Assembly (NCBI GenBank): GCA_002441305.1
Contig: DJVT01000002.1
Location: forward strand, 16,335-80,334
Length of the DNA stretch: 64,000 bases
Direction of reading: 5' to 3'
Source of the DNA: Candidatus Omnitrophica bacterium UBA6249
Lineage (GTDB): Bacteria; Omnitrophota; Gorgyraeia; Gygaellales; Profunditerraquicolaceae
Positions 1 to 23,396 of the stretch are shown here, piece after piece. A model generated the notes under the pieces. That model did not search any database, was not told the DNA's origin, and saw only the letters and a list, made by a program, of their open reading frames with translations. The position numbers and the translations under genes were made by a program. Position 1 is the stretch's first letter; every line of letters begins with the position of its first letter.

Positions 1-3000
1 TGCTTGCAAGATTGAAAAGCCCCTGCCCCGCAAAAGCCTTTACTTTATCGCTATAATCGGATGCTTGTATATAACGGGTCTCTCCGTTATAACTTACGGC
101 GAGATACCCGGTCGGCATCCATACTACCTGGCCGCCATCGGTAGCGCTGCTAATCCAATTAGGATTATCGAGCAAATACGTATTTATCAACTCGCATTGA
201 CGGCTCGAAAAATCCATATATTTGCTGAAATACGTCAATCCTGTATTCATGGCGGTTTCATTGGCGCGTAAGGCTCCGGCATAGTTGCTGGCCACGCCGC
301 CATAGGCGTTAGTGAAACTGTATAAATCCTGTATCGCAACGGGCATATCTTCTTTCATCTCAAGAGATCCCGTGCTGTCATCGAAATAAGGATTGTTTTC
401 GTAATAATTGTAGTCTGTTTTGGCAACCCGATAAACCGTCCAATTATAATTATCCGTAACTAAGGTAGGAACCAGCTTTGCAAAAGGATGGTCTTCTTTG
501 GCGTTCTCGGAATAGAATTTAGCGAATGCATCTTCCGATCTTGCTTCATAAAAACTGCCGAACATGCGGAAAGCCTTGGCCGGGAAATTTTGATTCGCGT
601 CAAAATTAGCCCATACATTCTTGGCTGTTTCTAAATCTATGCTGATATCTGATAACCCTGCGGAAGCGGCCGCCTGAGCGCCAAAGGTAGGGCCGTCATC
701 GGTGTACCCAATACTGTTAGATCCAGTATAGGTAAGCAATGATTCTGTGAAATTGTTGCCATCCAGAGGCACAAACTGCGTACCGTTATCCGAACCGAGC
801 ATATAAACTTCATGGAAGCTGTCATTTATCCCGTTGCCCACCGCGAAATTCTGGACGCCATATATGCCTTCATCCACCCTGACATCCTTGGTATACAGTA
901 TACTCGCACCGGAAGAATCCAAATCGGTAAAAGAATTGGTAATCCTAAAACGTGGCAGAAGGGCATCAAATGCCTCTCCGGGGATTCCGGTAGAAAAATC
1001 TATAGTCTCCATCTGCACGCTTACGGGATCAAGCTCTCTCTTCTGAGCAAACATGCCATTTACGCTCATCGTGATTTGAGACAAATATAAGCCGCTATAA
1101 TTGCCGGCTCCATAAGCATACTGATTAATAGGCAGCTCTATTCTATTCTCTGTGCCGCTTGCATTGCTCCCCACCCTTGCTACTATATTAAGCCCGGGTA
1201 TCGAACCGCTATCTTCCCCGAAATCCTCCAAAGAAAGGGTGCCCAGTATGGTTTTTCCGTCAGCAGATTTAATATCGGTATTTATGCCGTTCCAGAAAGG
1301 ATTGATGTCTGAAAAAGAATAATTTGTAAAACGCTCTATTGCGTTAGCGGCAAAAATATTATTTTGGTTGTAAAGATAGGAATTCCATCCGTCTGAAGTA
1401 AAGACTTCGCAATCATTGATAAGATCCCGGCTTATCCCCATGAATGAAAAAGACGTGGGGTCGGGTGTAACTAAACTGAATTTCCCTATGCCCATACCGG
1501 TATTCGGGTCCAGCTGCCTTGCCATGCCTATCGATGCATCTCCTGAACCAAACCAGCTCCCCTGAACCAGTTCTAAACCTGAAGAAGGAGATCTGACAAT
1601 AGTCATATAAGCATCGAAATTGGGCTTACCGTAATTCTCGCCATTGATGCCCCCGGCGGTAATGATACGGTCAAACCATGGGATCACTCCACGGGTAACC
1701 GTACCGAGATCCGTGGTAACGGTTGTCGCGTTGGCAAGCGGCATATTGAAATTTACATAAACCGAGGTACCCTTATAGTTATAAATACCCGGCAAAGACA
1801 AAGTGCTAGAAGAAGCCACATTGCGCGAAAAGATTGGAGAGGAAAAAGCCTTATTGCTGAACCCATGATAATAATCTTTATTTTCCAGCAAGGCAAAACT
1901 CATGGCCTTGCCAGCCAGAAAAGCGCCTTTGATAGCTCCATTAGAGGTGCCTATCGTACTGCCCAGATAATTATTTATTACATCTACGCTAAAATCATAC
2001 CCTGTGGCAATAGCATAAACATTGCTGCCAAGCGTTAAATTGGAATTATAACCTAATTCAATCAGATTCGCCGTTAAGATACTTACATCGGAGCTAAGCT
2101 GAACCTTAGAATTATAAGATTTACCTGCGGTTGCGGAATTAACATGTTCAGCCCCTACCAAAACACCGGACTCAACATATACTGCGGCGATCTCCCCTCT
2201 TGTTAACTGTACATAGTTATTTGAAGCTATCCTTACGGCCCGGGGATCAGTCCAGTCCACTCCCAGGCTTCCATAGAAATCTTGCTGGAATTGAGTCCCT
2301 CCCCATAACGCATCCCAATAATAACCCCAATCATCCGAAAATCCCGCATCCTTGGCTGCCTGACGGACATCATTGGCATAACCAAGGCCCGATCCGCTGC
2401 GTTGTATTACTGTATTAACGGTCACCGTGGAAGCTTTCTGGGTAGCCGAATAATCCAGATAATCGGAATTCATAGTATAAGTTTGCGTCGGGGTAGAAAC
2501 AAACTTGGCGGGAGAATAAGCACGAGTAACCGTTCTATTTATTTTCTTAACGGCATTACCCCAAGAGTAATCCTTTGTTCTCCCGGCTCCCAAGATCGTT
2601 TTGCTTTCGGCTGGATTAAGAACGCGCACACCTGCCGGCAAGACGCTTGTCAGGGCATACCCGGTAAACTTGCTTAGAAAGGTATCGATCGGGAAGAACT
2701 CTTCTTTATGGTTGTCTACATAATAAACTCTATCTTTTGATATGCGCGAAACTAAAATATAATGGTCTAAATTTAAATGGGCGATAAAAGGAACCATTGT
2801 CTCAATTACAGAGGAATCTTCTATCTTTACCGGATATAAATCAAGCCCGAAGAATTTAGAGGCCTGAGAAAGCGCATACAGTGAATTTTTGATTATTTTA
2901 GGATTACCTTCTGGCCTAACCACTTCATTAAGAATATCAGTAGTAAGGGCCATTATAGCTACATCTTCTTCAGAGGCCTTAATTCCTGCATAATTTAAAT

Positions 3001-3406
3001 AGTCAAAAATCGCCTTTGAACCACATGGCTTCCCTTTCAGCCACTCAAATAATTCTTCGATTCTTTGATTGGACATTCTTAGTGGTTTGTCCAAAGACAA
3101 GGTCAGATTGGACGAAACCCTAACCGCAGTTACCGGCTTGTTCGCTATTTCTTTTAGAATGTTACGAATTGTTAAAGCAGTATTAATATTGTTGAGGTTA
3201 TTGAAGTGCGCGGGAGCTATGCTACCAACAGTGGGCTTATTCCAAATGACCCGCCAATCATATTCAACGGCTTGAGCAACTTGTTCAGGAAGGAATACCG
3301 CAACCAAGACAAAAGCAACCATGCGGATCCAAGCTTTAAAATTTGACTTGAATTCCTTCTTTGGTTGCTCAAACCTTTTTTCTGTCGGTTGCAGGTTTTT
3401 GGTCAT
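1..3406 (-). CDS. Large membrane-anchored protein with N-terminal peptidase C39-like domain (partial; C-terminus beyond window start, >1135 aa)
   Basis: Absent from the ORF track only because no stop codon lies in the window. My minus-strand translation from ATG 3406..3404 (in-frame TAA directly upstream, AGGT 7 nt upstream) stays open to base 1: MTKNLQPTEKRFEQPKKEFKSNFKAWIRMVAFVLVAVFLPEQ... One TM helix is followed by LKGKPCGSKAIFDYLNYAG and PFIAHLNLDHYILVSRISKDRVYYVDN, which fit the Cys and His motifs of C39-type papain-fold peptidase domains. The remaining ~850 aa are N/S/G/T/Y-rich with no motif I recognise. Other-frame ORFs in 65..3275 are all <=92 aa. Confidence 0.75.
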   Translation of the reverse strand, partial: MTKNLQPTEKRFEQPKKEFKSNFKAWIRMVAFVLVAVFLPEQVAQAVEYDWRVIWNKPTVGSIAPAHFNNLNNINTALTIRNILKEIANKPVTAVRVSSNLTLSLDKPLRMSNQRIEELFEWLKGKPCGSKAIFDYLNYAGIKASEEDVAIMALTTDILNEVVRPEGNPKIIKNSLYALSQASKFFGLDLYPVKIEDSSVIETMVPFIAHLNLDHYILVSRISKDRVYYVDNHKEEFFPIDTFLSKFTGYALTSVLPAGVRVLNPAESKTILGAGRTKDYSWGNAVKKINRTVTRAYSPAKFVSTPTQTYTMNSDYLDYSATQKASTVTVNTVIQRSGSGLGYANDVRQAAKDAGFSDDWGYYWDALWGGTQFQQDFYGSLGVDWTDPRAVRIASNNYVQLTRGEIAAVYVESGVLVGAEHVNSATAGKSYNSKVQLSSDVSILTANLIELGYNSNLTLGSNVYAIATGYDFSVDVINNYLGSTIGTSNGAIKGAFLAGKAMSFALLENKDYYHGFSNKAFSSPIFSRNVASSSTLSLPGIYNYKGTSVYVNFNMPLANATTVTTDLGTVTRGVIPWFDRIITAGGINGENYGKPNFDAYMTIVRSPSSGLELVQGSWFGSGDASIGMARQLDPNTGMGIGKFSLVTPDPTSFSFMGISRDLINDCEVFTSDGWNSYLYNQNNIFAANAIERFTNYSFSDINPFWNGINTDIKSADGKTILGTLSLEDFGEDSGSIPGLNIVARVGSNASGTENRIELPINQYAYGAGNYSGLYLSQITMSVNGMFAQKRELDPVSVQMETIDFSTGIPGEAFDALLPRFRITNSFTDLDSSGASILYTKDVRVDEGIYGVQNFAVGNGINDSFHEVYMLGSDNGTQFVPLDGNNFTESLLTYTGSNSIGYTDDGPTFGAQAAASAGLSDISIDLETAKNVWANFDANQNFPAKAFRMFGSFYEARSEDAFAKFYSENAKEDHPFAKLVPTLVTDNYNWTVYRVAKTDYNYYENNPYFDDSTGSLEMKEDMPVAIQDLYSFTNAYGGVASNYAGALRANETAMNTGLTYFSKYMDFSSRQCELINTYLLDNPNWISSATDGGQVVWMPTGYLAVSYNGETRYIQASDYSDKVKAFAGQGLFNLAS

Positions 3407-3674
3407 TTTTTACCTAATACAAATTAAATAAAAAATAAATTCCCCCCTTACCCCAGAATCATTTTTAATTTTGAAATCTGTTCTTGTCATCATTAATCCG
3501 TTATTATTAAAATCTTTTTAAAATTTTTTATCAAGTACTGTTCAAAAATAGTCTGGTTCTCGTCGATACTGGCAACCCGGCTATCCTTTGAGGCTTTTTT
3601 GATTTGAGGACCCGTGGCTTTGTGTCCCTAGATTTCTCTAGGTTTACCTTTTTCATCATTTCAACTTACACTTA

Positions 3675-3703
3675 AATATAACACTCCAGATCGTCGCTGT
3701 CAA
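3675..3703 (-). promoter_or_regulatory. Candidate sigma70-type promoter for the C39-domain gene
   Basis: Minus strand TTGACA (3703..3698), 17-nt spacer, TATATT (3680..3675). It lies ~270 nt upstream of ATG 3406, implying a long 5' UTR that contains a CCTAGA/TCTAGG hairpin (3627..3642). Confidence 0.4.
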
Positions 3704-3946: not shown

Positions 3947-4498
3947 TAATAAGAGCATTTCCTGATGCTTAATTTCATATGGCCGTGTTTATTTTTTACA
4001 ATACTCGACTTATTGCTAATTAAATCTAGCCTAACAAAGAATAACCCAATCAATAAGTCTCAATTATCCATCCTACGGATCCTTAGAATTAAAAGGCAAG
4101 GAAAGTGATTTCGCCCAAAATAAACAGCCTGGTACTAAGATCGTTAAATATTCTGAAAGGGCTGTGCTTAAAACTTGCGATTCTAAAGCATGCAGCATAT
4201 GGCTATAAGGGAAGTAAACATACTTAGCCGGATGTTTATTGCAGCTCTAAATACCGTATTAACGGCACAACAAACCTGCGGCTATTTCTTTAACTGTCAA
4301 CCACATAACGGCAATGGTTTAGTTGTATCGCAAAAGGTCTGCGTAAAAATATCAGGAGGCTCTTTTACAGCATCAAAAAATAAACTGGATGACTGGCATA
4401 AGTTACTGAGAGGCCGGATCGCTGGCAAGATAATCCTGCAATCCAAAAGAAATGAATTGGACCTTAAGGACAGGCATGCATAAAAAGGTTTGCGGGAA

Positions 4499-5356
4499 TT
4501 AGAATCCTCTAATTCCACCCTGCATAAAAGTAAGCAGAATGGGCCCGCCGACAATTATGCCGATTACGGGCATTATAAAGAATATAAGGGGAAGGAGTAT
4601 CTTTATCGGGGCCTGCAAGGCGGTTCTTTCGCCGCGATGGAACCTTTGTTCCCTGGCGTCCTCGGAAAGGACTGTAAATGCTTCGGCAACCGGGGTACCC
4701 ATACGTTCGGCCTGGATGATAGTTTGCACAAAAGAAGTCATCTCCGGAATCTCAAGCCGATGGGACATATCTTTCAAAGCCTGTATGCGAGGTTTACCCC
4801 ATTTTATTTCGTCTACGACAAAAGATAATTCTTCCGTCATTGGGGTGCTCGGGGTGCGTTCAATAACCCATTTTACGGCATTAACGAAATCTAAACCGGC
4901 TTCAATACAAAGACCCAGCAAATCCACCGTCTCGGGAAGCCTGCGCGCAATCATATATTTACGCTGGGTTACCTTCCTTTTTAGATAAAAATCCGGCCCA
5001 ACATATCCAAGAGCAACAGCAATTATCAAAAGCGGGGGTTCAAACTTTCCGACCGCCGCTTGCGCGCAACATGCAAAAATAATGCATAGGAGTACCTTTA
5101 AATTAAAAAAACCCCCTGGAGACATCTGAATTCGTGCGGCATCCAGCGATTTTTTCAAGCTGGCAGCCATGCCGGTACTCTGCAAGAATGCCCCGGTAGG
5201 CAGGATACGGGCAAGGTCAAACGGAGGTTTCTTGAATTGTACGGCCTGCCCCTCTTGAGGCATGTGCAAGAGGGTGCTTGGATGCGAAGAAATCAGCGCC
5301 CAAATAATGAGCCCGGCGGAACCTAGGATAAAAACAAAAATTAATATCTCCATCAC
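4499..5356 (-). CDS. tadC: Tad pilus inner-membrane platform protein, TadC-like (T2SSF domain)
   Basis: 285 aa, polytopic. T2SSF-type region LPETVDLLGLCIEAGLDFVNAV...QAERMGTPVAEAF. Start overlaps the tadB stop (5356/5353). Confidence 0.8.
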   Translation of the reverse strand: MMEILIFVFILGSAGLIIWALISSHPSTLLHMPQEGQAVQFKKPPFDLARILPTGAFLQSTGMAASLKKSLDAARIQMSPGGFFNLKVLLCIIFACCAQAAVGKFEPPLLIIAVALGYVGPDFYLKRKVTQRKYMIARRLPETVDLLGLCIEAGLDFVNAVKWVIERTPSTPMTEELSFVVDEIKWGKPRIQALKDMSHRLEIPEMTSFVQTIIQAERMGTPVAEAFTVLSEDAREQRFHRGERTALQAPIKILLPLIFFIMPVIGIIVGGPILLTFMQGGIRGF

Positions 5357-6198
5357 ACCTTTATCGTACTAAACATCTTTATCAAAACCATCCCCACAAC
5401 TTGCAAAACAACGGCTATAATAATCAGCATTCTGCCTAGATCGCTGTTTAACATAATATCAAAATGGTGTTTATTAACAGAAAGCACCCAGACTACGAAT
5501 ACAATCGGCAAGAAGGACATTATCGCCCCTTGCATACGGCCCTGTAAAGTAAGCGTTTTAATGCTCTCTCTTAATTTACGGTTATCCCTGATTGTAACCG
5601 TTAGCCTGCTGAAGACCTTAGGGAGTTCTCCTCCTGTTTCCCTGGCGACCAAAAGCGCATTTACCACCAGCCCAAGTTCATCGATATTCATCCTCTTTTC
5701 AAGCCGTTTCAAACATTCCTCCAGAGGGATGCCCATTTTATTTTCCCTGACAACCAGCCCCAATTCCTGGTTCATTGGCACAGGCATCTCCTCGACCAAC
5801 ACCTCCAATCCCTGCAAAAGGCTTAAACCGCCTTTTATGCAGCTTGAAAGCATGTTTATTGCGTCTAAAAGCTGATCGTTAAATTTGCTGATCCTGGCTT
5901 TATAACGGGCTTTCAGGATGAAATTGGGTATCGCCACGCCTACAATAACCCCCAAAATCATAAATACCGGAGACTGCATGAGGACGTAACCGGCGCCGCC
6001 GAAGACAAAAGGAAGGACATAATAAAGCATAACGATGCTTTTAGGGCTTTTGTCATAGAACATCTTATCCATTTCTTTAGCGAGAACTGCTTCCTTCTGG
6101 TATTGCCAGGACTGTATTTTCTGCACAAAAAAAGGAAGCAGGCTAAAAGAAATTAAAATAACGGAACATAAAATTAATAAACTTAGCAATATAATCAT
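5353..6198 (-). CDS. tadB: Tad pilus inner-membrane platform protein, TadB-like (T2SSF domain)
   Basis: 281 aa, polytopic. Second T2SSF paralog (NMLSSCIKGGLSLLQGLEVL...VARETGGELPKVF), adjacent to tadC. Confidence 0.8.
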   Translation of the reverse strand: MIILLSLLILCSVILISFSLLPFFVQKIQSWQYQKEAVLAKEMDKMFYDKSPKSIVMLYYVLPFVFGGAGYVLMQSPVFMILGVIVGVAIPNFILKARYKARISKFNDQLLDAINMLSSCIKGGLSLLQGLEVLVEEMPVPMNQELGLVVRENKMGIPLEECLKRLEKRMNIDELGLVVNALLVARETGGELPKVFSRLTVTIRDNRKLRESIKTLTLQGRMQGAIMSFLPIVFVVWVLSVNKHHFDIMLNSDLGRMLIIIAVVLQVVGMVLIKMFSTIKV

Positions 6199-6216
6199 TT
6201 CGCCATTATTGTATTA

Positions 6217-6390
6217 TTATGGAGTATACTGTTCGCCGCCGCCTAAGACATCACCTGTTTGACGGTATTTCCCCTGGAGACTGCGGCGATAATACGCCCC
6301 TGCCGCGATAAAAACTGCGACTACCAAGATAAGTATCCCTAGATATTCTATTATGGATTGCGCTTTATGACCCGGATTTTTTATAGGCAT
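6217..6390 (-). CDS. Small prepilin-like protein (57 aa) of the extended-pilin family
   Basis: Below the track cutoff. My translation: MPIKNPGHKAQSIIEYLGILILVVAVFIAAGAYYRRSLQGKYRQTGDVLGGGEQYTP. GGTGGA sits 5 nt upstream of ATG 6390. It overlaps the 3' end of the upstream ORF by 26 nt. It shows the same Q-S-x-x-E-Y, hydrophobic helix, Y-x-R-[RG]-x-Q-G and QY pattern as the genes at 9800..11497. Confidence 0.55.
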   Translation of the reverse strand: MPIKNPGHKAQSIIEYLGILILVVAVFIAAGAYYRRSLQGKYRQTGDVLGGGEQYTP

Positions 6391-7105
6391 TATAGTCCAC
6401 CGAGATACTTGTTTTTTTCAATGGGATCAAGTCGCTGCCGAACTTGGCATTCAAATTCTCGGAAACCTTTATTTTGCAGTTTTCTTTATTCTCTTTCCTG
6501 CGAAACAGCAAGACGGTATTCTTGGAAATCCCCGTTACCGGATTCCGGGCGGCAAGCTCCCATCCGTATTTCAGCATAGCAGATTCATAGAAAAAAACCA
6601 CATCTTTTACGCTATCATCGGTTTCATATACGAATGAGATTTTACCAAGGAACTTCAAAGAAATGGTCTGGATACTGCCGGGATAAACAGGCATAAAACT
6701 TACCCTATCGGGTTTTTTCTTGCTCATTGACAGAAATTCTTCTTTATCCGGGGTGTTCCCTATGGTTATACTGAATTTACTCTCTTTCTCTGGATTGCCC
6801 GAAGGATAGAATTGAATTGTGGCCAAATGCTTGTCTTTTGAGAATACCCCTTTACCTGCCACGCTCCATCCTGCCTGGGATAGTTTTTCTTCATAAAAAT
6901 CATATATCTCGCCCTCTCCCAAAAAGGTTTTATACATGCTTGTAGACATCTTTACTGGACCAAACTCCGAGCTTCTTTCATTAATTTTAGAAGTTTGGGA
7001 GGGAACCGGCATCCTGAAATTGGCGGCAAATAAAACAGGAGTAGCAACAAAAATAACCAAGAATAAACTCAATAAAAAATTCCCTAATAATCTGTAAATA
7101 CGCAT
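6365..7105 (-). CDS. Secreted/membrane-anchored hypothetical protein with internal duplication
   Basis: The track ORF starts at GTG 7120; ATG 7105 with GGGAG upstream is preferred (246 aa). Signal/anchor LLGNFLLSLFLVIFVATPVLFAANF. Two similar modules (IYDFYEEKLSQAGWSV / VVFFYESAMLKYGWEL). No family recognised. Confidence 0.6.
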   Translation of the reverse strand: MRIYRLLGNFLLSLFLVIFVATPVLFAANFRMPVPSQTSKINERSSEFGPVKMSTSMYKTFLGEGEIYDFYEEKLSQAGWSVAGKGVFSKDKHLATIQFYPSGNPEKESKFSITIGNTPDKEEFLSMSKKKPDRVSFMPVYPGSIQTISLKFLGKISFVYETDDSVKDVVFFYESAMLKYGWELAARNPVTGISKNTVLLFRRKENKENCKIKVSENLNAKFGSDLIPLKKTSISVDYNAYKKSGS

Positions 7106-7159
7106 TAAACTGGCTCCCACGTGTCTTTCGATAAATAAACTGGTTAATCTCCCGGGCTC

Positions 7160-8869
7160 TTAATCAATGCTTACTATCTGGGTTTCGTAGTTATCTTTAA
7201 AATCCTTCAACACCCCCTCGCCATGAAACTCTGCGGTGCTGGTACTTGTAGTAGCTGAATAAGGACTGCAGGTCTCCTCGCGCTCATTATATAAATTCTC
7301 ACAAAACGAGGATACACTGCATTTTGTCTGCCAAGCAGCAGGAGGACCTTCAAATACAGGATCATCGCCTATATTTATAATCATCGGGGTATCTTCATAA
7401 AAACTTGTCAGTTCATTCGAAGCTCCTTCGAAAGCACTATTGGCTTCATCATATCCTGCCTCGCCTTCTTGAAAGCCGCCGAGGGCTTCATCCGCATCGC
7501 TTACCGAACCGGTAAGCGTTTCATAACTGCCGCATATTTCTCCGGAATCAACGAATAAGCCTGCTTCAGTAAGCCATACATTTTTATATGTATCGGCATC
7601 CCTGGAATAAAGAGTCGCAATAGTTAAATCACTGCTCGAGGCATCGGAATTTTTAAGGATAGCATCAAGCGCTGCACATACTGATTCCTGTTTTGTCGTA
7701 AGAGCCTGCTTCCTGTTAGTCGCAGGGTCATAATAGTTAGGGTGGGCGTCGCAGGGGGGGTCTACAGCGTCACAGCATTCTTGAGCATAAACGGTCAATT
7801 GATAAATATCCTGCCCTTCTGTCGCGTTAATCGCTAAATTGTTATAAATACAAACCATGATGACCGTCAATGCCTTATAAGCTATCTGGTTAAAAGGATC
7901 GTCTGAAATAGAGGTTTCTTCGAATTCTATAAGATTTAATACATCACTTGGGATATTAAACGTCTTGTCATCCGGATAAGCCTTGTTTGTATATCTAAGT
8001 TTATAGTCGGTCAATTTCGGCATTTCCAGCGTTACAGTAGCCCCGCAAGTGCTCGTACCGCATTTTGAATCCCAATTCCAATCATAAGTTGAATTACTGG
8101 TAGTATCCTGGAAGGAGGCGTCATCTTTATACTTGCCGGTTCCCATCCAATAGCTAAATTTATCGCTGTTCGGGGACCTGGAAGACGTTCCGCTGTTATT
8201 AAAAGCATACTGCATCCCTACATCTTTGGCCTGTTCAATAGAATCATCCATAAGGTTCCTGGCCTGGCAATAATTTGCCACCTGCGACTGCTTAAAGCTA
8301 TCCGTAATTTGTTGAAGATAATAAGCAAGGACGTAACTGGCATAAAAAAAGTGCGCTGATGTCAACGCAAATGAAGCAGCTCCGATGACATCCTCGCTTT
8401 CGCTAAAGTTTTTTTCTGCCCCTTGTTGTTGATTTACCCAAATAGCACAATACTCTTCTGTAGTATCGATCTTTGCCAATGCCTCATAGGCCTTGTTTTT
8501 TGCTTGCTGAGCGTAAGTTTTGCCCTCATCACTATATCCGGAAAAATCCGCAATTCCTTCGCATTCATGTAAAAAATTATACAGATAATGGTAATTGGCC
8601 AAAGCGTAATCATAGTATTCATCCATATCCCTATTCTCAATGGCCAACTCATTAAAGGCCCCGGCCATAACAGAACCTGCGGCTAAAGAACAGGCGTCTG
8701 CGCCATTGGAAACGTTGGTTTTGCTTATTGCGCTTTTTCCTGCCGAAATGGCAATTTTTGCGCCTACAATCAAAATAACTATAAAAATAAGCAATAACGG
8801 AAATACCTGCCCTGCCGGCTTTCCCGCCGGACAAAAGCCTTTATTCCCGGGCAATCGGTGGATAAACAT
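7160..8869 (-). CDS. TadG-like large pilus-associated protein, Cys-rich (569 aa)
   Basis: The track ORF (609 aa) begins inside the upstream gene. ATG 8869, preceded by GGGGGAAAAGG and 10 nt after the stop of 8880..9116, is preferred. The N-terminus PAGQVFPLLLIFIVILIVGAKIAISAGKSAISKTNVSNGADACSLAAGSVMAG resembles the TadE/G-like N-terminal domain. About 16 Cys by my count; the rest is D/E/N/S/T/Y-rich. Confidence 0.6.
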   Translation of the reverse strand: MFIHRLPGNKGFCPAGKPAGQVFPLLLIFIVILIVGAKIAISAGKSAISKTNVSNGADACSLAAGSVMAGAFNELAIENRDMDEYYDYALANYHYLYNFLHECEGIADFSGYSDEGKTYAQQAKNKAYEALAKIDTTEEYCAIWVNQQQGAEKNFSESEDVIGAASFALTSAHFFYASYVLAYYLQQITDSFKQSQVANYCQARNLMDDSIEQAKDVGMQYAFNNSGTSSRSPNSDKFSYWMGTGKYKDDASFQDTTSNSTYDWNWDSKCGTSTCGATVTLEMPKLTDYKLRYTNKAYPDDKTFNIPSDVLNLIEFEETSISDDPFNQIAYKALTVIMVCIYNNLAINATEGQDIYQLTVYAQECCDAVDPPCDAHPNYYDPATNRKQALTTKQESVCAALDAILKNSDASSSDLTIATLYSRDADTYKNVWLTEAGLFVDSGEICGSYETLTGSVSDADEALGGFQEGEAGYDEANSAFEGASNELTSFYEDTPMIINIGDDPVFEGPPAAWQTKCSVSSFCENLYNEREETCSPYSATTSTSTAEFHGEGVLKDFKDNYETQIVSID

Positions 8870-8879
8870 CCTTTTCCCC

Positions 8880-9116
8880 CTACTTCTTAAGAAAATATAT
8901 CTGGTCATCGGTAATCTCCGATGCGCCATAAGGAACTGCGGGCTCTCCCGCGGAATCCCTTGAACCTGCCTGGACCCTGGTATCTTCATAGCTTCCCTGC
9001 CGGGCCCAAATCTGATCCTTTGACCAAGACCATAAATTCAACAGGCCGGCGATCAAAGCTACCGCTATTATAAAGATTAAAGTAAATTCTAAAGTGGCCT
9101 GGGCCTTTTTCATCAT
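8880..9116 (-). CDS. TadE-like pseudopilin (78 aa)
   Basis: MMKKAQATLEFTLIFIIAVALIAGLL...: short basic leader, then Q-A-T-L-E-F and a hydrophobic helix. Start overlaps the upstream stop (9116/9113). Confidence 0.6.
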   Translation of the reverse strand: MMKKAQATLEFTLIFIIAVALIAGLLNLWSWSKDQIWARQGSYEDTRVQAGSRDSAGEPAVPYGASEITDDQIYFLKK

Positions 9117-9757
9117 TGCATCGTAGTCTGGCGCGACATCGTTCCCCCGCCGGAAGTATATTTACCGCCCTCTCCCAATCCTCCTTCAAGATCTATAGAT
9201 GTCCCTTCTACATCGGAATCCCCTCCCAACGTATCCGTAACTACAAGTGATTTCCGGGTCACTATATTGCCGTTAGCCTCGTCTTTTTGAAAAGTCACAG
9301 TGCTGTAAGATGTACTTGTAAAACCGGAATGGGTGGTTTCGCTGGTATTATAAGGGGCATCACGGGCGGGAATCTCCTGAGGCTCGCCCCTGTTCAACTG
9401 AAACCACGACTTGGACTCAGTATCCGTTTTTACGGTAGCGCCGCTTTCATCGGTAGTCACGTCCTGTTTACCGTCTGACCAAAGGACATTGCTCGAGGCG
9501 CCAAATTGCTGCAACTCTCCCAGCTCCATAGGGCTGGTCACATTGGACATCCTGCGGAAATCGGTTGTCTGCCAAGATGCTGAATTGTTGAGTTTTCTGG
9601 CCTCTTTCAAAGCCGCGCGGAAGGTTTGTTGTATGTAAGACTGCTGCCGGTTGTATATCTCGCTGTGTTTTATGGCAAGAGCAAAAGCCATGAGTATTAT
9701 TGAGCCTAAAATGGCCAATTCTAATACTGCCTGTCCTTTAGATTTCCAGAACATCAT
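9113..9757 (-). CDS. TadE-like pseudopilin (214 aa)
   Basis: MMFWKSKGQAVLELAILGSIILMAFALAI...: a K-G/Q-A-V-L-E-L class-III-like signal plus helix, then an S/T/G/D-rich extracellular part. Confidence 0.6.
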   Translation of the reverse strand: MMFWKSKGQAVLELAILGSIILMAFALAIKHSEIYNRQQSYIQQTFRAALKEARKLNNSASWQTTDFRRMSNVTSPMELGELQQFGASSNVLWSDGKQDVTTDESGATVKTDTESKSWFQLNRGEPQEIPARDAPYNTSETTHSGFTSTSYSTVTFQKDEANGNIVTRKSLVVTDTLGGDSDVEGTSIDLEGGLGEGGKYTSGGGTMSRQTTMQ

Positions 9758-9799
9758 CGGCCCCCTGCAATACTGGATCTAAAACCACCAACCAAGCCT

Positions 9800-10093
9800 C
9801 TATTGGCTATATTGATACGTAGATTCCTCTTTCCCCGTAAGTTTTCTGCCTCCCCCAAGCAGCTCTTGGTTAGTCATGGTTGATTTCAAAGAGGTCGAAC
9901 TTTCGGTATCCGCGGCATCTTCGTCGGGAGCCTGCTGGTCGCTTATGATGTAATCGGTCAAGCTCTTAACTTTCCCCTGCATACCCCTTCTTAGGTAAGC
10001 TTCCATCCCGATAACTACAAGCCCTATGATCCCGATAAGCAAAGCGATCTCGATTACGCTCTGTCCCCTGTCTAAAGAAAACACTGTTTTCAC
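9800..10093 (-). CDS. Extended prepilin-like protein (97 aa), paralog family member
   Basis: MKTVFSLDRGQSVIEIALLIGIIGLVVIGMEAYLRRGMQGKVKSLTDY..., acidic/S/T-rich tail ending YQYSQ. Start overlaps the upstream stop. Confidence 0.6.
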   Translation of the reverse strand: MKTVFSLDRGQSVIEIALLIGIIGLVVIGMEAYLRRGMQGKVKSLTDYIISDQQAPDEDAADTESSTSLKSTMTNQELLGGGRKLTGKEESTYQYSQ

Positions 10094-10821
10094 AGGCCAC
10101 CCAGACTTTCATTTATATTCTTGCTGGTGGATGTTTTGCCGCTTTCGCTGCTATAAGAAGTGGAGGATGAAGAATCTTCGGTTATCTCCCTTGCGTCCCA
10201 GTCCTCCTTCAAAGCATCATATTCATCGCTAAGCTGGCCCAATGTTTCGTATTTGCTATTTAATTCGGTTATATAATTTGCTACTATGCCGCCCTCCGGG
10301 GGACCGGCCCATGTAAGAGCTGTTGCCGGGTCAATCTGGCCGCCTTCCCCGGAAATCGCGAAGGTCTCTTCGAATGCCTTTAAAGCCTCCTCGTCTCCTT
10401 CTATAGCCAGGGCTCCTTCGAATCTAGATTGCATTTCTTCTATTTCTTCATCGGTATATCCACCCTGATTTTTCTCTTGCAGCTCGTCCTCCGTAAACCC
10501 ACCTCTTTCAAAACTGTCTATATCCTCCTGCTGTGTTTGAAGTTCCTCTAATTTATTATCCAAAGCTTCGTTTGGTTCATTCATATTGCCGTAATTTACC
10601 GTGGTGTTCGTCCCGGAAGATTGGGTGGTCTCTATCTTCTTAACCTCGGTATTATGGATGGTGGTATTCCCCGGGTCATACTGTCCTGCCCCCAATTTCT
10701 CAGCATTGCTGCGCACCCCCCCTTGTAACCCGCGATTAACATAAACCAGCATGGCAACTAATGCGGCGGCGAATACCCCGATTAACAAAATATAATCCAA
10801 GGCCGCCTGTCCTTTTTTCAT
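10090..10821 (-). CDS. Extended prepilin-like protein (243 aa) with long acidic tail, paralog family member
   Basis: MKKGQAALDYILLIGVFAAALVAMLVYVNRGLQGGVRSNAEKLGAGQYDPG..., then ~190 aa very rich in E/D/S/T (EDIDSFERGGFTEDELQEKNQGGYTDEEIEEMQ...). Confidence 0.6.
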   Translation of the reverse strand: MKKGQAALDYILLIGVFAAALVAMLVYVNRGLQGGVRSNAEKLGAGQYDPGNTTIHNTEVKKIETTQSSGTNTTVNYGNMNEPNEALDNKLEELQTQQEDIDSFERGGFTEDELQEKNQGGYTDEEIEEMQSRFEGALAIEGDEEALKAFEETFAISGEGGQIDPATALTWAGPPEGGIVANYITELNSKYETLGQLSDEYDALKEDWDAREITEDSSSSTSYSSESGKTSTSKNINESLGGL

Positions 10822-11135
10822 TAGTCCTCCGAGCCAAGATCGCTTATAGTCTCGCTTCCGGTTTTTCTTTGTTCATTTTGAACGATCTCTGTAGTAACCC
10901 TCCCTCCCGATGTCATGTTTTCAACCTGCTCCATGTCAACTGTCGTGGTGTAAGTGGAAGTAGTGTGCCCGGCTGAATACTGCTCTCCTATCTGGTCCGT
11001 CGAACTTCTTAACCTGCCTTGCACGCCCCTTTTCATATACGCCCCCATGGCAATCAGGGCCGCAACGACAAACCCTATCAGGATAACTACTTCAAGAGTG
11101 GTCTGACCTTTTGTTCTGATAAGCGACATATACAC
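10821..11135 (-). CDS. Extended prepilin-like protein (104 aa), paralog family member
   Basis: MYMSLIRTKGQTTLEVVILIGFVVAALIAMGAYMKRGVQGRLRSSTDQIGEQYSAGHTT..., T/S/E-rich tail. Confidence 0.6.
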   Translation of the reverse strand: MYMSLIRTKGQTTLEVVILIGFVVAALIAMGAYMKRGVQGRLRSSTDQIGEQYSAGHTTSTYTTTVDMEQVENMTSGGRVTTEIVQNEQRKTGSETISDLGSED

Positions 11136-11161
11136 CTCCCCGCAAAAGTTATTAAAGCGAT

Positions 11162-11497
11162 TTAATCGTCTACCCCCAAAACGGTACTGGTCCCTGTTCT
11201 TGTGCTGACATCATCTCCCACGATCGATCTGGTTATTCCCCCGCCTTCGGTGGTCGATTCTCTTTCCTGGCTCTTGCGGGTAGAAACCATATCCGAAGTG
11301 GTCTGATAATCAGGTTCATATTGCCCGGTCTGTCCGGTAATATTATCGCTCGCGTCTGTGTAATCCACGGCGTCTTTTATCTTACCCTGAAGCCCGCGCT
11401 TTACATAAACCTGCATAGCTACCGCCGCGGCAATAACTAAACCGATAACAATCGCGTATTCCGCGGTACTTTGCCCTTTGCTTAATCGTCTTAACAT
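11162..11497 (-). CDS. Extended prepilin-like protein (111 aa), paralog family member
   Basis: MLRRLSKGQSTAEYAIVIGLVIAAAVAMQVYVKRGLQGKIKDAVDYTDASDNITGQTGQYEPDY... Strong RBS AAGGAGG upstream of ATG 11497. Confidence 0.65.
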   Translation of the reverse strand: MLRRLSKGQSTAEYAIVIGLVIAAAVAMQVYVKRGLQGKIKDAVDYTDASDNITGQTGQYEPDYQTTSDMVSTRKSQERESTTEGGGITRSIVGDDVSTRTGTSTVLGVDD

Positions 11498-11528
11498 TCC
11501 TGCACCTCCTTGCTTATAAAGACATATT

Positions 11529-11544
11529 CCCGTTTATAAACGGG
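11529..11544 (-). terminator. Weak hairpin after the fourth flp gene (possible partial terminator/attenuator)
   Basis: CCCGTT-TATA-AACGGG, a 6-bp stem immediately after the stop at 11549. The downstream T-tract is poor (AATATGTCTTTAT), so at best it is leaky. Confidence 0.3.
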
Positions 11545-11548
11545 GTCA

Positions 11549-11716
11549 TTAAAAAGAAACCTCCCCCACTTTATCCTGCATCTTATCGGCCAGCTCGCTA
11601 TAAGAAGAGTTTAATTTAGGTTTCAACATACTTCCTACCGCAATTATTGCTCCGACGACCGCAGCTAAAATAATAACGTATTCCAGTGTCCCCTGCCCTT
11701 TTCTGAACTTTTTCAT
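11549..11716 (-). CDS. flp: Flp-family type IVb pilin (55 aa)
   Basis: Below the track cutoff. My translation: MKKFRKGQGTLEYVIILAAVVGAIIAVGSMLKPKLNSSYSELADKMQDKVGEVSF. It has the G/xxxxEY Flp processing motif plus a hydrophobic helix. GGAGGGAGAG precedes ATG 11716. Confidence 0.7.
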   Translation of the reverse strand: MKKFRKGQGTLEYVIILAAVVGAIIAVGSMLKPKLNSSYSELADKMQDKVGEVSF

Positions 11717-11737
11717 CTCTCCCTCCTTATGAAAAAA

Positions 11738-11959
11738 TTATTCCGATCGGTAATAATTAAGCTCCGTCTGCCTCTGTTTAAGACAGGCGTTGGTCGAACG
11801 CATCAGATAAATCGTCATCGCGATCAACGCCGCACTAACAATAATAATAAGCATCGCATATTCTATAAACCCTTGCCCGGATGCTCGTCTATAAAATGCC
11901 ATTTTACCTGGACTCTTTATCCCCCTGTCTTCATCCATCAGCCGTACATAAGCCATCAT
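11738..11959 (-). CDS. flp: Flp-family pilin (73 aa, or 54 aa from internal ATG 11902)
   Basis: ...MAFYRRASGQGFIEYAMLIIIVSAALIAMTIYLMRSTNACLKQRQTELNYYRSE. ATG 11959 overlaps the upstream TGA (ATGATG coupling). The alternative start is 11902. Confidence 0.65.
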   Translation of the reverse strand: MMAYVRLMDEDRGIKSPGKMAFYRRASGQGFIEYAMLIIIVSAALIAMTIYLMRSTNACLKQRQTELNYYRSE

Positions 11960-12114
11960 TGCCCAAGACGTGCATTCATCGCCCTTATCACATAAGTGCT
12001 CATCGCCACTAAGGCCGTGCTTATAACAATAATCAGCATGGTATATTCCAGAAAACTCTGGCCTTGATTTCGTACCATTGCCATCGGCTTTAGAATTGAT
12101 TTTCTTACGGGCAT
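11956..12114 (-). CDS. flp: Flp-family pilin (52 aa)
   Basis: MPVRKSILKPMAMVRNQGQSFLEYTMLIIVISTALVAMSTYVIRAMNARLGQ. ATG 12114 has GAGAGG 6 nt upstream. The track start 12147 would overlap the preceding flp gene. Confidence 0.65.
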   Translation of the reverse strand: MPVRKSILKPMAMVRNQGQSFLEYTMLIIVISTALVAMSTYVIRAMNARLGQ

Positions 12115-12124
12115 ATGAAACCTC

Positions 12125-12280
12125 TCATTGATTGTACACGGTGTCATATATTACAGTCAATTGCGGATTTGCCACTGAGGCAGCCGCGACTATAACACCG
12201 ATAACCACAGCCAAAATTATTACATATTCCAAAGTACTTTGGCCGCACTTACAATATAGAGTACCTCTATTATTAAACAT
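12125..12280 (-). CDS. flp: Flp-family pilin (51 aa)
   Basis: Below the track cutoff. My translation: MFNNRGTLYCKCGQSTLEYVIILAVVIGVIVAAASVANPQLTVIYDTVYNQ. It has the G/QSTLEY motif. No Shine-Dalgarno sequence is present; see the promoter at 12289..12317. Confidence 0.6.
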   Translation of the reverse strand: MFNNRGTLYCKCGQSTLEYVIILAVVIGVIVAAASVANPQLTVIYDTVYNQ

Positions 12281-12288
12281 TCTAACTA

Positions 12289-12317
12289 AATATACCATTT
12301 AAGGATATAACAATCAA
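12289..12317 (-). promoter_or_regulatory. Candidate promoter for the flp/pilin gene string
   Basis: Minus strand TTGATT (12317..12312), 17 nt, TATATT (12294..12289). The -10 ends 8 nt before ATG 12280, so the predicted transcript would be leaderless or nearly so. Confidence 0.35.
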
Positions 12318-12330
12318 GGTTAATCCAGGG

Positions 12331-14235: not shown

Positions 14236-14263
14236 ACACTCTCCAGATTGGACATTTTTAATT

Positions 14264-14292
14264 ACTATACTGCCTATTCAGCAGGTTGTCAA
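14264..14292 (-). promoter_or_regulatory. Candidate sigma70-type promoter upstream of the HTH/coiled-coil gene
   Basis: Minus strand TTGACA (14292..14287), exactly 17 nt, TATAGT (14269..14264), ~30 nt upstream of ATG 14235. Confidence 0.45.
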
Positions 14293-14338
14293 GAAACCAT
14301 ATCTTCCAGACTAACAAAATTAGATATCTAACAGGCGG

Positions 14339-14683
14339 TTAAGATGAAAAAGAAAGGTTGTCGCCTTTTTGAGTGCATGTCAAGCTAATGGTTCCGGAAG
14401 GCAATTCAATCACTTTGGAAGAATTCCAGTATACGGGACTGAGTTTATTCGGGGATAGTTTATGGATAATATCTATTACTCGAAAAGCTTTATCTGCAAA
14501 AATTACATCTATCGGGAAACGCATAAAGAAAGTATGCACAGAAATACAGGGTTCCAGAATAAGCGCTTGCCCGGAAGAAAAAGTATTTTTCCCCAACAAC
14601 CCTTTAACTCTTTTTAAGAAAGTATCGGCTAAAATTACATCATCGGATAAAACGGTATTTTTTGTCCGGTTTATCAAACGCAT
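14339..14683 (-). CDS. DUF192 domain protein
   Basis: 114 aa. ADTFLKRVKGLLGK...GQALILEPCISVHTFFMRFPIDVIFADKAFRVIDI...VIELPSG matches the DUF192/COG1430 pattern. Confidence 0.7.
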   Translation of the reverse strand: MRLINRTKNTVLSDDVILADTFLKRVKGLLGKNTFSSGQALILEPCISVHTFFMRFPIDVIFADKAFRVIDIIHKLSPNKLSPVYWNSSKVIELPSGTISLTCTQKGDNLSFSS

Positions 14684-14693
14684 GGATATTCCC

Positions 14694-16853: not shown

Positions 16854-16855
16854 TT

Positions 16856-18451: not shown

Positions 18452-18512
18452 TTTTCTCCTTTTATCCGTTTATCCCGCGCAGAACCCTCACGCAGACAAA
18501 AGTGTCATATGC

Positions 18513-20627: not shown

Positions 20628-20690
20628 AAATATTAGATGTATTTTACTATAATTGCCTTTTTAGTCAACAACTTAATAAATACAATTTTA

Positions 20691-20719: not shown

Positions 20720-20726
20720 GGTTGGC

Positions 20727-21911: not shown

Positions 21912-21912
21912 A

Positions 21913-23388: not shown

Positions 23389-23396
23389 AAACTACT

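Follow-up and report, generated by a model that had tools for sequence, protein, structure and literature searches.

A predicted c-di-GMP-I-type riboswitch and a C39 peptidase head with a candidate cleavage site of its own at the start of an Omnitrophota giant gene

Introduction

A 64,000-nucleotide stretch of DNA from an uncultured Omnitrophota bacterium (the window) begins with a long minus-strand frame that runs off its edge, next to a pilus-like locus. Which gene does this frame belong to, and what is the peptidase-like domain near its N-terminus likely to act on?

Omnitrophota giant genes that encode an N-terminal C39 domain beside a signal peptide have been described (West-Roberts et al. 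2023, bioRxiv 10.1101/2023.11.21.568195). According to that work, a conserved locus with gspD/E/F, rcpC, Rotamase_2 and class III signal peptide genes lies upstream of them, their products combine numerous transmembrane regions with a divergent SecA-DEAD domain, and pilZ genes follow downstream. The authors raise two roles for the C39 domain, cutting the giant protein into pieces or cleaving other substrates, and also mention an HlyB-like chaperone or tether role. A PF03412 architecture cluster has been reported among giant proteins (bioRxiv 10.64898/2026.06.07.730766). The length bars in use are at least 7,000 aa (Seymour et al.) and, for 'giant', more than 30,000 aa (West-Roberts et al.).

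Window positions 1-3406 (minus strand) are the 5' end of a giant gene of this published class. The head of the encoded protein is no unknown oddity. A riboswitch in front of the gene and a peptidase head with an apparent cleavage site of its own look to be unreported features of these genes.

Results

The frame is open in three assemblies

Translation of the minus strand from nt 3406 to nt 1 gives 1,135 codons with zero stops. The preceding in-frame codons read TAA AAA ATG, so the ATG at 3406 is the earliest possible start, and residues are numbered from it (M1 at nt 3406). None of the other five frames across this 3.4 kb has an ORF longer than 92 aa; the 1,135-codon frame is therefore not a product of chance. 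It is absent from the ORF list because the listing omits ORFs that run off the source.

The same gene is found in two further assemblies. An independent MAG contig (L001, GCA_028716205.1) is 99.5% identical at the DNA level and extends the frame to 1,326 aa. The protein it encodes is identical: 5 nucleotides differ over 3,075 nt, every one a synonymous change in the third position, which points to a real gene kept under selection. The gene is also present on a JGI metagenome contig (L082), where the protein differs at 1 of 1,135 aa and the frame comprises at least 4,659 codons, still open at the fetched end, 725 nt before the end of the contig. The three independent assemblies agree on the open frame, and the stop or frameshift named earlier as a possible refutation is absent from L001 and L082.

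The 40 protein homologs are all partial and almost all from Omnitrophota MAGs; the identical protein (P0001) also comes from an Omnitrophota MAG. GTDB genomes contain 108 relatives, and nearly all of the 80 loci fetched are labelled Omnitrophota; the placement of the window in this phylum is taken from these matches. The frame runs off the stretch in 76 of these 80, reaching ~3,600 aa wherever the stretch spans 10 kb, and three of the four apparent 'stops' are frame changes at N-gaps. Some MAGs carry 2-3 such loci, as in one that holds the paralogs L037, L057 and L062.

The conserved head carries a signal peptide-like segment

The first ~274 aa form a head that retains 47-75% identity among over 100 Omnitrophota loci. 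It is composed of the following features:

3269-3406, minus strand: start codon and N-terminal targeting segment, aa 1-46 (conservation, hydropathy, predicted helix)
3047-3268, minus strand: region between signal peptide and peptidase core, aa 47-120 (conservation)
2630-3046, minus strand: C39 cysteine peptidase domain, aa ~121-259 (PF03412, AF2, Foldseek, conservation)
3023-3025, 2762-2764 and 2714-2716, minus strand: catalytic-type residues Cys128, His215 and Asp231, respectively
2585-2620, minus strand: double-glycine-leader-like motif L263-N-P-A-E267-S-K-T-I271-L-G273-A274 (conservation, AF2)

A single hydrophobic segment at ~aa 21-47, the sole window above Kyte-Doolittle 1.6 within the first 1,326 aa, corresponds to the N-terminal TM anchor of the initial annotation. 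The targeting segment has a Lys/Arg-rich start, a hydrophobic core of 11-12 residues (aa 29-39), Pro40 and the sequence A44-Q45-A46. Residues F38, P40, Q42, A44, Q45 and A46 are invariant in 40 sequences, and AF2 places a helix at aa 23-45. The assignment can thus be refined: the segment appears to have the form of a Sec signal peptide, and could serve as a cleaved signal or as an uncleaved signal-anchor. The following region, aa 47-120, is conserved and includes the motif VEYDWRVxW; it matches no known family and is partly ordered in the AF2 model (pLDDT 41-86).

The head contains a C39-family peptidase domain

The Pfam profile PF03412 matches with 30.3 bits against a cutoff of 22, aligning aa 175-253 with profile positions 46-127 of 133, a match that excludes the N-terminal third of the profile, where the Cys sits. 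The AF2 model is confident over aa 120-275 (pLDDT 85-97) and shows a helix at 130-139 after C128. The best Foldseek matches are LahT150 (6mpz), PCAT1 (7n87 and 6v9z), ComA (5xe8 and 3k8u) and 3b79, with target TM-scores of 0.65-0.73; the C39-like domains of HlyB and of Vibrio (3zua, 3b79, 7sgr) reach similar scores. Membership of the domain in the C39 family, as first proposed, is well supported.

The motifs that suggested this assignment, CG and H-x-I-L-V...Y-V-D-N, are located at C128-G129, H215-Y-I-L-V and Y229-V-D231-N. Cys128 and His215 are present in 40 of 40 sequences; Asp231 is found in 32 of 40, with Glu in 5 more, and the Cys motif is kept in 80 of 80 relatives. Every homolog covering the region keeps the catalytic Cys and His, and the lack of conservation named earlier as a possible refutation is not seen. 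Asp231 lies at His+16, the same spacing as between His101 and Asp117 in the LahT150 catalytic set Cys27/His101/Asp117. The retention of Cys128, His215 and an Asp/Glu at His+16 in more than 80 diverged sequences argues for retained catalysis. The Gln six residues before the catalytic Cys, a proposed oxyanion-hole residue, is replaced by Trp122 in 40 of 40 sequences. In the LahT150 structure that Gln is 4.3 Å from the oxyanion, and a His has been suggested for the role; as the structure questions the function of the Gln, this residue may be dispensable.

No ABC transmembrane or ATPase domains were found by Pfam or NCBIfam (TIGR03796 gives only 15.5 bits against 853). The domain follows the signal peptide and is therefore predicted to reside outside the cytoplasm. 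Known C39 peptidases act in the cytoplasm, within ABC exporters, and we know of no tested precedent for an extracytoplasmic C39 domain that could be cited.

A double-glycine-like motif marks the end of conservation

Directly after the C39 domain, all 80 relatives that reach this position contain the motif L-S/T-x-x-E-x-x-x-I/V-x-G-A. Gly at -2 is invariant, -1 is Ala, Ser or Gly, -4 is Ile or Val, -8 is Glu (or Gln), and -12 is Leu, Ile or Val. The motif fits the published consensus of double-glycine leaders (Leu-12, Glu-8, -4 hydrophobic, then Gly-Gly/Ala/Ser), save at -7, where Ala or Ser stands instead of the Leu of the ComA consensus. AF2 models aa 261-270 against the C39 domain with a pLDDT of 97. 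Similarity to almost every relative ends exactly at Gly273-Ala274, falling from 64-75% identity to none (E 1e-150 before, best E 0.07 after).

Beyond this point the motif shows no enrichment: across ~154,000 residues downstream in the relatives it matches 32 times, with 32.7 expected. No small ORF with a double-glycine leader is present within the window. From this pattern we infer a predicted scissile bond after A274 and a single self-cleavage after Gly273-Ala274. The conserved site lends specific support to the earlier idea that the C39 domain may process the protein itself. The motif could also simply be the last structural helix of the domain.

The body is a mosaic with few relatives

2-2584, minus strand: start of the variable body (861 aa, aa 275-1135), which extends past the window edge to at least aa 4,659

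After Ala274 the chain continues for no fewer than 4,385 residues. The tract described at the outset as N/S/G/T/Y-rich is confirmed: these residues account for 41% of aa 291-1135, compared to 26% in aa 1-290. The body is a mosaic: it has no similarity to the first ~3,600 aa of the 80 relatives (best E 0.07), and only two relatives (P0041 and P0042) were found among 1.84 billion representatives. Up to aa 4,659 there is no Pfam match, and modelling of the body yielded no confident structure. Beyond aa 1,326, two more strongly hydrophobic segments occur at aa 1332-1369 and 4013-4046. Of the proposed very large surface protein, adhesin or toxin-like, the size and the N-terminal membrane-targeting segment stand; the adhesin or toxin label is unproven, the body being without a Pfam match.

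A c-di-GMP-I-type aptamer precedes the gene

3675-3703, minus strand: sigma-70-type promoter-like site, TTGACA, 17 nt, TG-n-TATATT (consensus match only)
3567-3657, minus strand: c-di-GMP-I-type riboswitch aptamer, Rfam RF03167, c-di-GMP-I-GGC variant (Rfam)
3541-3581, minus strand: expression platform remnant (alignment to 11 closest relatives, hairpin prediction)
3442-3454, minus strand: purine-rich motif GGGGTAAGGGG(GG), ~40 nt upstream of the ATG (conservation)

The aptamer matches the full-length Rfam model at 69 bits (gathering score 59, E 3e-14), and its 3' end lies 160 nt before the ATG, in the same orientation as the gene. Just 5' of it lies the promoter-like site, which is the best in the 1.1 kb gap, with 11 of 12 consensus matches and an extended -10 TG. 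The aptamer also precedes the genes of the relatives, in 18 of 20 cases with the Rfam model and in 69 of 80 with a custom covariance model. In the aptamer alignment 97.4% of cells are paired and 11 pairs show compensatory changes, compared to at most 51% pairing in slid controls. Most copies in the family score best as the GGC binding-pocket variant; both models, RF01051 and RF03167, belong to the Rfam clan CL00126. Together, this points to a c-di-GMP-I-type riboswitch, with c-di-GMP the presumed ligand of the GGC variant.

A terminator overlaps the 3' strand of the aptamer in at least 36 of 70 leaders and in all 11 closest relatives, an arrangement that suggests ON-switch logic in the family. 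In the window, a T-run comes after the aptamer 3' strand GCCGGGTTGCC, and 10 nt of the terminator 3' arm, which reads ATTGACAACT in the relatives, are absent. The arm is kept in 11 of 11 closest relatives, and the predicted hairpin has -3.5 kcal/mol in the window compared to -23.9 in the L003 type. Since the same deletion of 10 nt is also seen in the independent assembly L001, it is found in two assemblies. With it, transcription here probably reads through whatever the ligand level, and regulation in this organism is therefore uncertain. The purine-rich motif GGGGTAAGGGG(GG) occurs in 11 of 12 aligned leaders, the window's included; similar motifs are found in the more distant leaders L047, L048 and L059, and a looser form in L031.

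The riboswitch and the cis site are mentioned for these genes neither in bioRxiv 10.1101/2023.11.21.568195 nor in bioRxiv 10.64898/2026.06.07.730766, nor in the wider literature searched; the two preprints likewise do not mention the double-glycine character of the site or the sharp conservation boundary.

The neighbouring loci match the published class

4499-20347, minus strand: Tad/T2SS-like locus upstream of the giant gene (Pfam)
20637-24332, plus strand: divergent operon with FIST sensor, histidine kinase and REC-GGDEF response regulator (Pfam)

The Tad/T2SS-like locus encodes a PPIase (Rotamase_2), RcpC, a secretin-TonB_C fusion, a ParA-like/T2SSE fusion ATPase, DUF192, two T2SSF proteins, ~10 Flp-like pilins and a weak, below-cutoff TadE/G-like match. 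It matches the published upstream locus gene for gene, and among the 54 relatives with at least 4 kb of upstream sequence, 43 have T2SSF upstream in the same orientation. The pilin-like genes have short Flp-type KGQxxxEY leaders without the double-glycine pattern at -4/-8/-12. The initial annotation remarked on a missing A24 peptidase; the scan of the major ORFs across the window gave no Peptidase_A24 hit, nor was a GxGDxK motif found. The products of the divergent operon match FIST and FIST_C, HisKA and HATPase_c, and Response_reg and GGDEF; the operon may be a local source of c-di-GMP, and its functional link to the riboswitch is inferred.

Discussion

Proposed mechanism and alternatives

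Taken as a whole, the data are best explained by a riboswitch-led giant gene whose C39 head cleaves its own chain at a double-glycine-like site, a reading that we consider probable, if by no means certain. Sec would export the N-terminus, so that the C39 domain folds outside the cytoplasm. The downstream 'leader' helix would dock in the substrate groove of its own C39 domain, which would then cleave the polypeptide a single time after Ala274, either in cis or between adjacent copies. The cut would part the conserved head from the variable body, with the anchor staying on the head unless the signal has been removed; the body might then be displayed or handed over to the adjacent secretin/pilus machinery. 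In the family, binding of c-di-GMP would keep the strand GCCGGGUUGCC in the aptamer and prevent the terminator that uses the same strand, as in an ON switch. Tentatively, these elements may form a three-part 'launch module' common to the family, with a c-di-GMP ON riboswitch, a Sec signal and an extracytoplasmic C39 domain with a cis leader, in which a single cut releases a fast-diverging mosaic body; this generalisation is possible, though we would not yet bet on it. If true, this would be, as far as found, the first demonstration of a C39 peptidase acting on the chain that contains it and extracytoplasmically; bacterial giant proteins would also gain their first regulatory element and their first defined processing site.

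The same domain could be an active peptidase that works in trans, on other sites within giant proteins, partner secreted proteins or surface proteins of prey, with the motif an uncut structural or autoinhibitory pseudo-substrate. The off-consensus -7 position, the missing Gln at Cys-6 and the 2-3 paralogous loci of some MAGs, which could cross-process, would suit such a role, and West-Roberts et al. raise the cleavage of other substrates as well. We nevertheless regard it as unlikely, given the lack of motif enrichment in the downstream residues of relatives, the lack of a small double-glycine-leader ORF in the window, and the one invariant, perfectly placed candidate site in cis. A non-catalytic C39-like chaperone or tether, which as in HlyB holds the unfolded chain or docks it to secretion machinery, is a role also mentioned by West-Roberts et al.; it would agree with the Foldseek scores of the HlyB and Vibrio domains and with the unconserved oxyanion Gln position. 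The catalytic-type residues, kept across more than 80 diverged sequences, make it a rather improbable reading. C39-like domains are defined by the loss of the catalytic Cys.

Prepilin cleavage occurs on the cytoplasmic face of the membrane. This bears on the suggestion that the C39 domain takes the place of an absent A24 prepilin peptidase by trimming the G/Q leaders of the adjacent Flp-like pilins, to which the absence of A24 from the scanned ORFs and the synteny with the pilus locus lend some appeal. The C39 domain, behind its signal peptide, would be on the outer side; the leaders of the pilins are short and differently patterned, an A24 gene could sit elsewhere in the genome, and the site in cis suits the domain better. 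The proposed link is thus not supported, and we regard it as highly improbable. A pseudogene, an assembly chimera or non-coding sequence might be suspected from a body without Pfam domain or confident structure and from database relatives that are almost all 'partial'. This is effectively refuted by the agreement of three assemblies, by at least 4,659 open codons, by differences that are synonymous only, by the conserved arrangement of promoter, riboswitch and start, and by the short ORFs of the other frames.

Comparison with known systems

With c-di-GMP-I (GEMM-I) riboswitches at pilus, adhesin and motility genes, the leader of the giant gene shares a score above the Rfam gathering threshold, covariation, a position 5' of a surface-related gene and, in many relatives, a terminator overlapping the aptamer 3' strand. 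It differs in that the GGC variant prevails, a giant gene is controlled and the terminator arm is deleted in this organism. The Omnitrophota giant proteins ('Archaeovorin'-type) have in common with the window gene the phylum, the signal peptide-adjacent C39 domain, a largely unannotatable body, the upstream locus and contigs that break inside the gene. The window gene is readable to 4,659 aa only, and the SecA-DEAD and glycosyl-hydrolase domains of the class are not seen within this readable part.

The peptidase domains of LahT150, PCAT1 and ComA share the fold, the Cys/His/Asp triad, the His-Asp spacing and the substrate pattern (G-G/A/S, hydrophobic -4 and -12, Glu -8). In contrast to these, the domain described here has no ABC domains, follows a signal peptide with a predicted extracytoplasmic location, and carries Trp instead of Gln at Cys-6 and Ala/Ser at -7. 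The candidate substrate sits in cis on the same chain, and what would be the 'cargo' comprises thousands of residues rather than a peptide. The HlyB-type C39-like domain of RTX type I secretion is likewise tied to a very large secreted protein, but it lacks the catalytic Cys and is a cytoplasmic part of the transporter, whereas here Cys128 is invariant and the domain is within the cargo.

In Pseudomonas, the giant adhesin LapA is cut once near its N-terminus by the periplasmic cysteine protease LapG under the control of c-di-GMP. LapG is a stand-alone enzyme with a di-alanine target site, LapA is exported by type I secretion, and c-di-GMP acts via the receptor LapD. The proposed system would share with LapA/LapG/LapD a giant surface protein, a single cut on the N-terminal side by a cysteine protease and control by c-di-GMP. 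It would differ in having the protease, of another fold than LapG, built into the protein itself, and a riboswitch in place of the LapD receptor protein.

Extent of the giant gene and its relatives

In the translation of the window, 1,135 codons without a stop run on the minus strand from the ATG at 3406 to the window edge. The in-frame codons leading into the start are TAA AAA ATG, which makes this ATG the first possible start of the giant gene, and the alignment of homologs begins at the same Met. The longest ORF in the remaining five frames of the stretch is 92 aa. The gene is absent from the ORF list only because frames extending past the end of the source are not listed.

Two other assemblies carry the gene. 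An Omnitrophota MAG contig (L001, GCA_028716205.1) is 99.5% identical in DNA sequence and encodes an identical protein that is 191 aa longer; the ORF differs at 5 nucleotides, each a synonymous third-position change. A JGI metagenome contig (L082) also has the gene, differing by 1 aa; at least 4,659 codons are open there, and the frame is still open at the end of the fetched sequence, 725 nt short of the contig end. An exact-protein look-up of the neighbouring T2SSF, aimed at extending the contig, found no record. The stop-free minus-strand frame described in the initial annotation (1-3406) is borne out by translation and by both assemblies, which also carry it beyond the window edge.

The NCBI record of the identical protein from the L001 MAG (P0001) starts at Met111 (L001 position 10001), 110 codons too late. 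The protein so annotated lacks the signal peptide and the conserved region at the N-terminus, and what seems to be a gap of 1.1 kb opens up, containing a doubtful opposite-strand ORF. The ORF (4190-4483, plus strand; 97 aa, or 94 aa in the public annotation) is conserved in no relative and is probably spurious. Contig ends routinely cut such genes short, ORF callers that discard edge-running frames miss them, and they can receive late start codons in annotation.

Among 5.8 billion proteins searched, 40 homologs were found, all of them partial and nearly all from Omnitrophota MAGs. Except for P0001, they match no more than the first 22-28% of the query. In GTDB genomes, a scan identified 108 related loci; sequence was fetched for 80 of these. 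In 76/80 the frame runs off the fetched stretch, reaching ~3,600 aa where 10 kb was available. Apparent stops occur in four relatives, three of them due to scaffold N-gaps that shift the frame. In the locus L020, codon 408 is an in-frame TAG (position 11222), and 2,384 further open codons follow soon after in the same frame; the in-frame stops of L020 could be sequencing error, a pseudogene or read-through. Two or three separate loci with the same conserved head (aa 1-274) are present in some single MAGs (L037, L057 and L062 in JAQUSM01; L061 and L063; L020 and L066; L028 and L055), and the family can be multi-copy in one genome.

The head contains a C39 domain predicted to be secreted

The N-terminus combines a Lys/Arg-rich start and a hydrophobic core with Pro40 and an almost invariant Ala-Gln-Ala, in the manner of a Sec signal peptide or, at the least, an N-in signal-anchor. 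Either would place the C39 domain outside the cytoplasm. By predicted topology the domain is therefore extracytoplasmic, unlike the C39 domains of ABC exporters, which are located in the cytoplasm. Domain profile searches found no ABC transporter domains in the protein.

The motifs named initially (C128-G129, H215-Y-I-L-V, Y-V-D231-N and one hydrophobic segment near aa 21-47) are all present, and the domain is a real C39 domain. Pfam matches PF03412 to aa 175-253 with 30.3 bits (cutoff 22). AF2, given 40 sequences, models aa 120-275 with pLDDT values of 85-97, and the top fold matches of this model in the PDB are the double-glycine peptidase LahT150 (6mpz, E 9e-6), PCAT1 and ComA; the C39-like domains of HlyB and of a Vibrio transporter are also among the best. 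Fold comparison was needed for this structural match, since a PDB profile search with the full alignment gave no match and single-sequence phmmer against the PDB reached 6mpz only at E 0.11.

Catalytic residues, whose conservation had been left to be checked, are retained: C128, G129 and H215 are invariant in the 40 sequences, and position 231 is Asp in 32/40 and Glu in 5/40. D231 lies 16 residues past His215, the same spacing as His101/Asp117 of LahT150. The retained Cys sets the domain apart from C39-like domains of the HlyB type. Six residues before Cys128 an invariant Trp takes the place of the usual Gln, a residue whose role has been doubted from the LahT150 structure.

The head model also weakly matches 4g54 (rank 15, E 4e-3, TM-score 0.27-0.36), the periplasmic domain of the EpsAB protein from the type II secretion system of Vibrio, possibly a hint that C39-like folds and secretin-associated proteins are linked.

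A candidate cleavage site at the head/body boundary

Directly after the C39 domain lies the 12-mer L263-N-P-A-E267-S-K-T-I271-L-G273-A274, with the family consensus L-S/T-D-x-E-A-K-x-I/V-L-G-A. The double-glycine-like motif is found in all 80 genomic relatives that reach its position. In the published recognition pattern of C39 peptidases, the leader ends in Gly-Gly, Gly-Ala or Gly-Ser and carries Leu-12, Glu-8 and Leu-7. The 12-mer fits this pattern well, save for position -7, which is Ala/Ser. In the AF2 model, a short strand and helix formed by aa 261-270 pack against the C39 domain (pLDDT 97).

Conservation of the 12-mer, counted position by position in the 40-sequence alignment.
Position -12: L/I/V, 40/40
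Position -8: Glu 34/40, Gln 5/40
Position -4: I/V, 40/40
Position -2: Gly, 40/40
Position -1: Ala 36, Ser 3, Gly 1 of 40

The Gly-Ala coincides, in sequence comparisons, with the conservation boundary between head and body. In most loci, the similarity of the relative to the query breaks off at residues 274-285. With aa 1-274 as BLASTP query, the 15 best relatives are 64-75% identical (E down to 1e-150), and the family as a whole 47-75%; the best E of aa 275-1135 against the first ~3,600 aa of the 80 relatives is 0.07.

If the giant protein were cut into many pieces, loose motif matches should recur downstream; 32 are found in ~154,000 residues against 32.7 expected, and this reading is rejected for the first ~3,600 aa. 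Action in trans would call for substrates, and no small ORFs with a double-glycine leader are present in the window. The initial annotation had called a link of the domain to the processing of pilin leaders, given a missing A24 peptidase, tempting but unsupported. The locus contains a set of pilin genes:

8880-12298, minus strand: ~ten small paralogous Flp-type genes, N-termini K/R-G-Q-x-x-x-E-Y followed by a hydrophobic helix

Prepilin peptidase (Peptidase_A24) was found neither by Pfam nor by motif among the major ORFs scanned across the 64-kb window; a role of the C39 domain in pilin processing is not supported. Together, the conserved motif, its position at the boundary, the lack of downstream enrichment and the lack of small leader ORFs point to a single predicted self-cleavage after Ala274. 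The earlier picture of a very large surface protein with a self-processing C39 domain is partly right: it stands as far as a giant secreted or surface protein and the peptidase domain are concerned, and self-action is probable. The literature searched contained nothing relevant on C39 self-cleavage.

The body is compositionally biased and has few relatives

The body (aa 275 onward) is rich in N, S, G, T and Y, as first noted: these residues make up 41% of it, compared to 26% of the head. Among 1.84 billion representative proteins, aa 275-1135 have two relatives only, P0041 and P0042, with 46-48% identity over aa 721-1135. P0041 is collinear with the L082-extended protein from aa 399 to 2218 (49% identity). 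A few close genomic relatives share blocks of 29-42% identity at aa ~1,400-2,450 and 3,995-4,127; their shifted positions indicate that the body is mosaic. Pfam gave no match in the body up to aa 4,659 (aa 1136-4659 scanned via L082), only TPR repeats in the partial relative P0041, and in P0042, likewise partial, only DnaJ, just under the gathering cutoff. The AF2 model of aa 721-1135, made from 3 sequences, is unusable (pLDDT 30.6).

The first strongly hydrophobic stretch past the signal segment is at aa 1332-1369, so that ~1,280 residues after the signal segment are predicted to be extracytoplasmic. The transition from a conserved head to a body almost free of relatives marks the part of the protein under diversifying pressure, as expected for a part that meets prey or the environment.

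A predicted c-di-GMP-I-type riboswitch precedes the giant gene

A gap of 1.1 kb separates the end of T2SSF (4499) from the giant-gene ATG. Its first ~800 nt, between T2SSF and the promoter, show no conservation. The 5' leader contains two features:

3703..3675, minus strand: promoter-like TTGACA-17-TATATT with a TG extension, just upstream of the aptamer
3657..3567, minus strand: full-length c-di-GMP-I-GGC aptamer (Rfam, 69 bits; gathering threshold 59)

The aptamer is also present in L001 (9420-9510) and L082 (7422-7512), the latter the same as that of the window. In 18/20 loci, namely 17 relatives and L001, the second assembly of the window organism, Rfam detects an element of the same clan (canonical c-di-GMP-I or its GGC variant) ahead of the gene. 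A covariance model built from these matches places the aptamer, mostly of the GGC variant, in 69/80 relatives, with its 3' end 127-315 nt (median 198) from the gene; 3 of the 11 negative loci have no upstream sequence to search. The predicted structure is well supported by comparative analysis: 97.4% of cells are paired, compared to at most 51% in slid controls, and 11 pairs are changed on both sides.

In many relatives the 3' strand of the aptamer, GCCGGGUUGCC, doubles as the 5' arm of a stable hairpin with a U-run behind it. This overlapping arrangement is found in at least 36/70 leaders and in all 11 closest relatives. Since GCCGGGUUGCC is shared, the ligand-bound aptamer and the terminator would be mutually exclusive, which suggests ON-switch logic in the leaders of the relatives. 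Unlike in the 11 closest relatives, 10 nt (ATTGACAACT) of the terminator 3' arm are absent in the window (3541-3581, minus strand). The predicted hairpin has -3.5 kcal/mol in the window organism and -23.9 in the type represented by the related locus L003. The independent assembly L001 carries the same deletion. Termination control has probably been lost in the window organism, a lineage-specific event.

A purine-rich motif, GGGGTAAGGGG, is located ~40 nt upstream of the ATG (3442-3454, minus strand), too distant from the start for an ordinary ribosome-binding site. It is present in 11/12 aligned leaders, counting that of the window, and in several distant ones.

Beside the pilus locus, a divergent operon (20637-24332, plus strand) encodes a FIST sensor, a histidine kinase and a REC-GGDEF response regulator and could supply the riboswitch with c-di-GMP locally.

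Comparison with known systems

Upstream of the giant gene are genes for a Rotamase_2 PPIase, RcpC, DUF192, two T2SSF proteins, the Flp-type pilins, a protein whose TadE/G-like match is weak and stays below the cutoff, a secretin and a fusion ATPase:

14694-16853, minus strand: 719-aa single protein joining a ParA/MinD-type ATPase (TadZ-like) and a T2SSE secretion ATPase (TadA-like)
16856-18451, minus strand: secretin with C-terminal TonB_C domain (PF03544, 61.7 bits)
20553-20627, minus strand: tRNA gene between the pilus locus and the divergent FIST operon

In classical Tad loci, the TadZ-like and TadA-like ATPases are separate genes. The fusion of a secretin to TonB_C is, to our knowledge, unusual. 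The giant proteins of Omnitrophota came to notice only recently, and we know of nothing on their regulation, export or processing. The locus makes two such questions testable: self-cleavage of the head, and c-di-GMP binding and antitermination by the 91-nt leader RNA.

In 43 of the 54 relatives for which the upstream sequence suffices, T2SSF precedes the gene in the same orientation. West-Roberts et al. (bioRxiv 10.1101/2023.11.21.568195) described such a locus upstream of Omnitrophota giant genes, as well as downstream pilZ genes and GGDEF domains within the giant genes. Long Omnitrophota proteins in a 2026 preprint include a PF03412 architecture cluster of 24 proteins. With the published upstream locus and the T2SSF synteny, the giant gene described here is a new member of this already published class.

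Neither preprint on these giant genes mentions a riboswitch or a double-glycine site, and searches for an Omnitrophota or Omnitrophica riboswitch gave only papers on other topics. To the published description we add two elements not found in the literature searched: a conserved candidate cis double-glycine site at the head/body boundary, and a predicted c-di-GMP-I-type riboswitch preceding giant genes across the family. A third addition is the lineage-specific loss of the terminator in the window organism.
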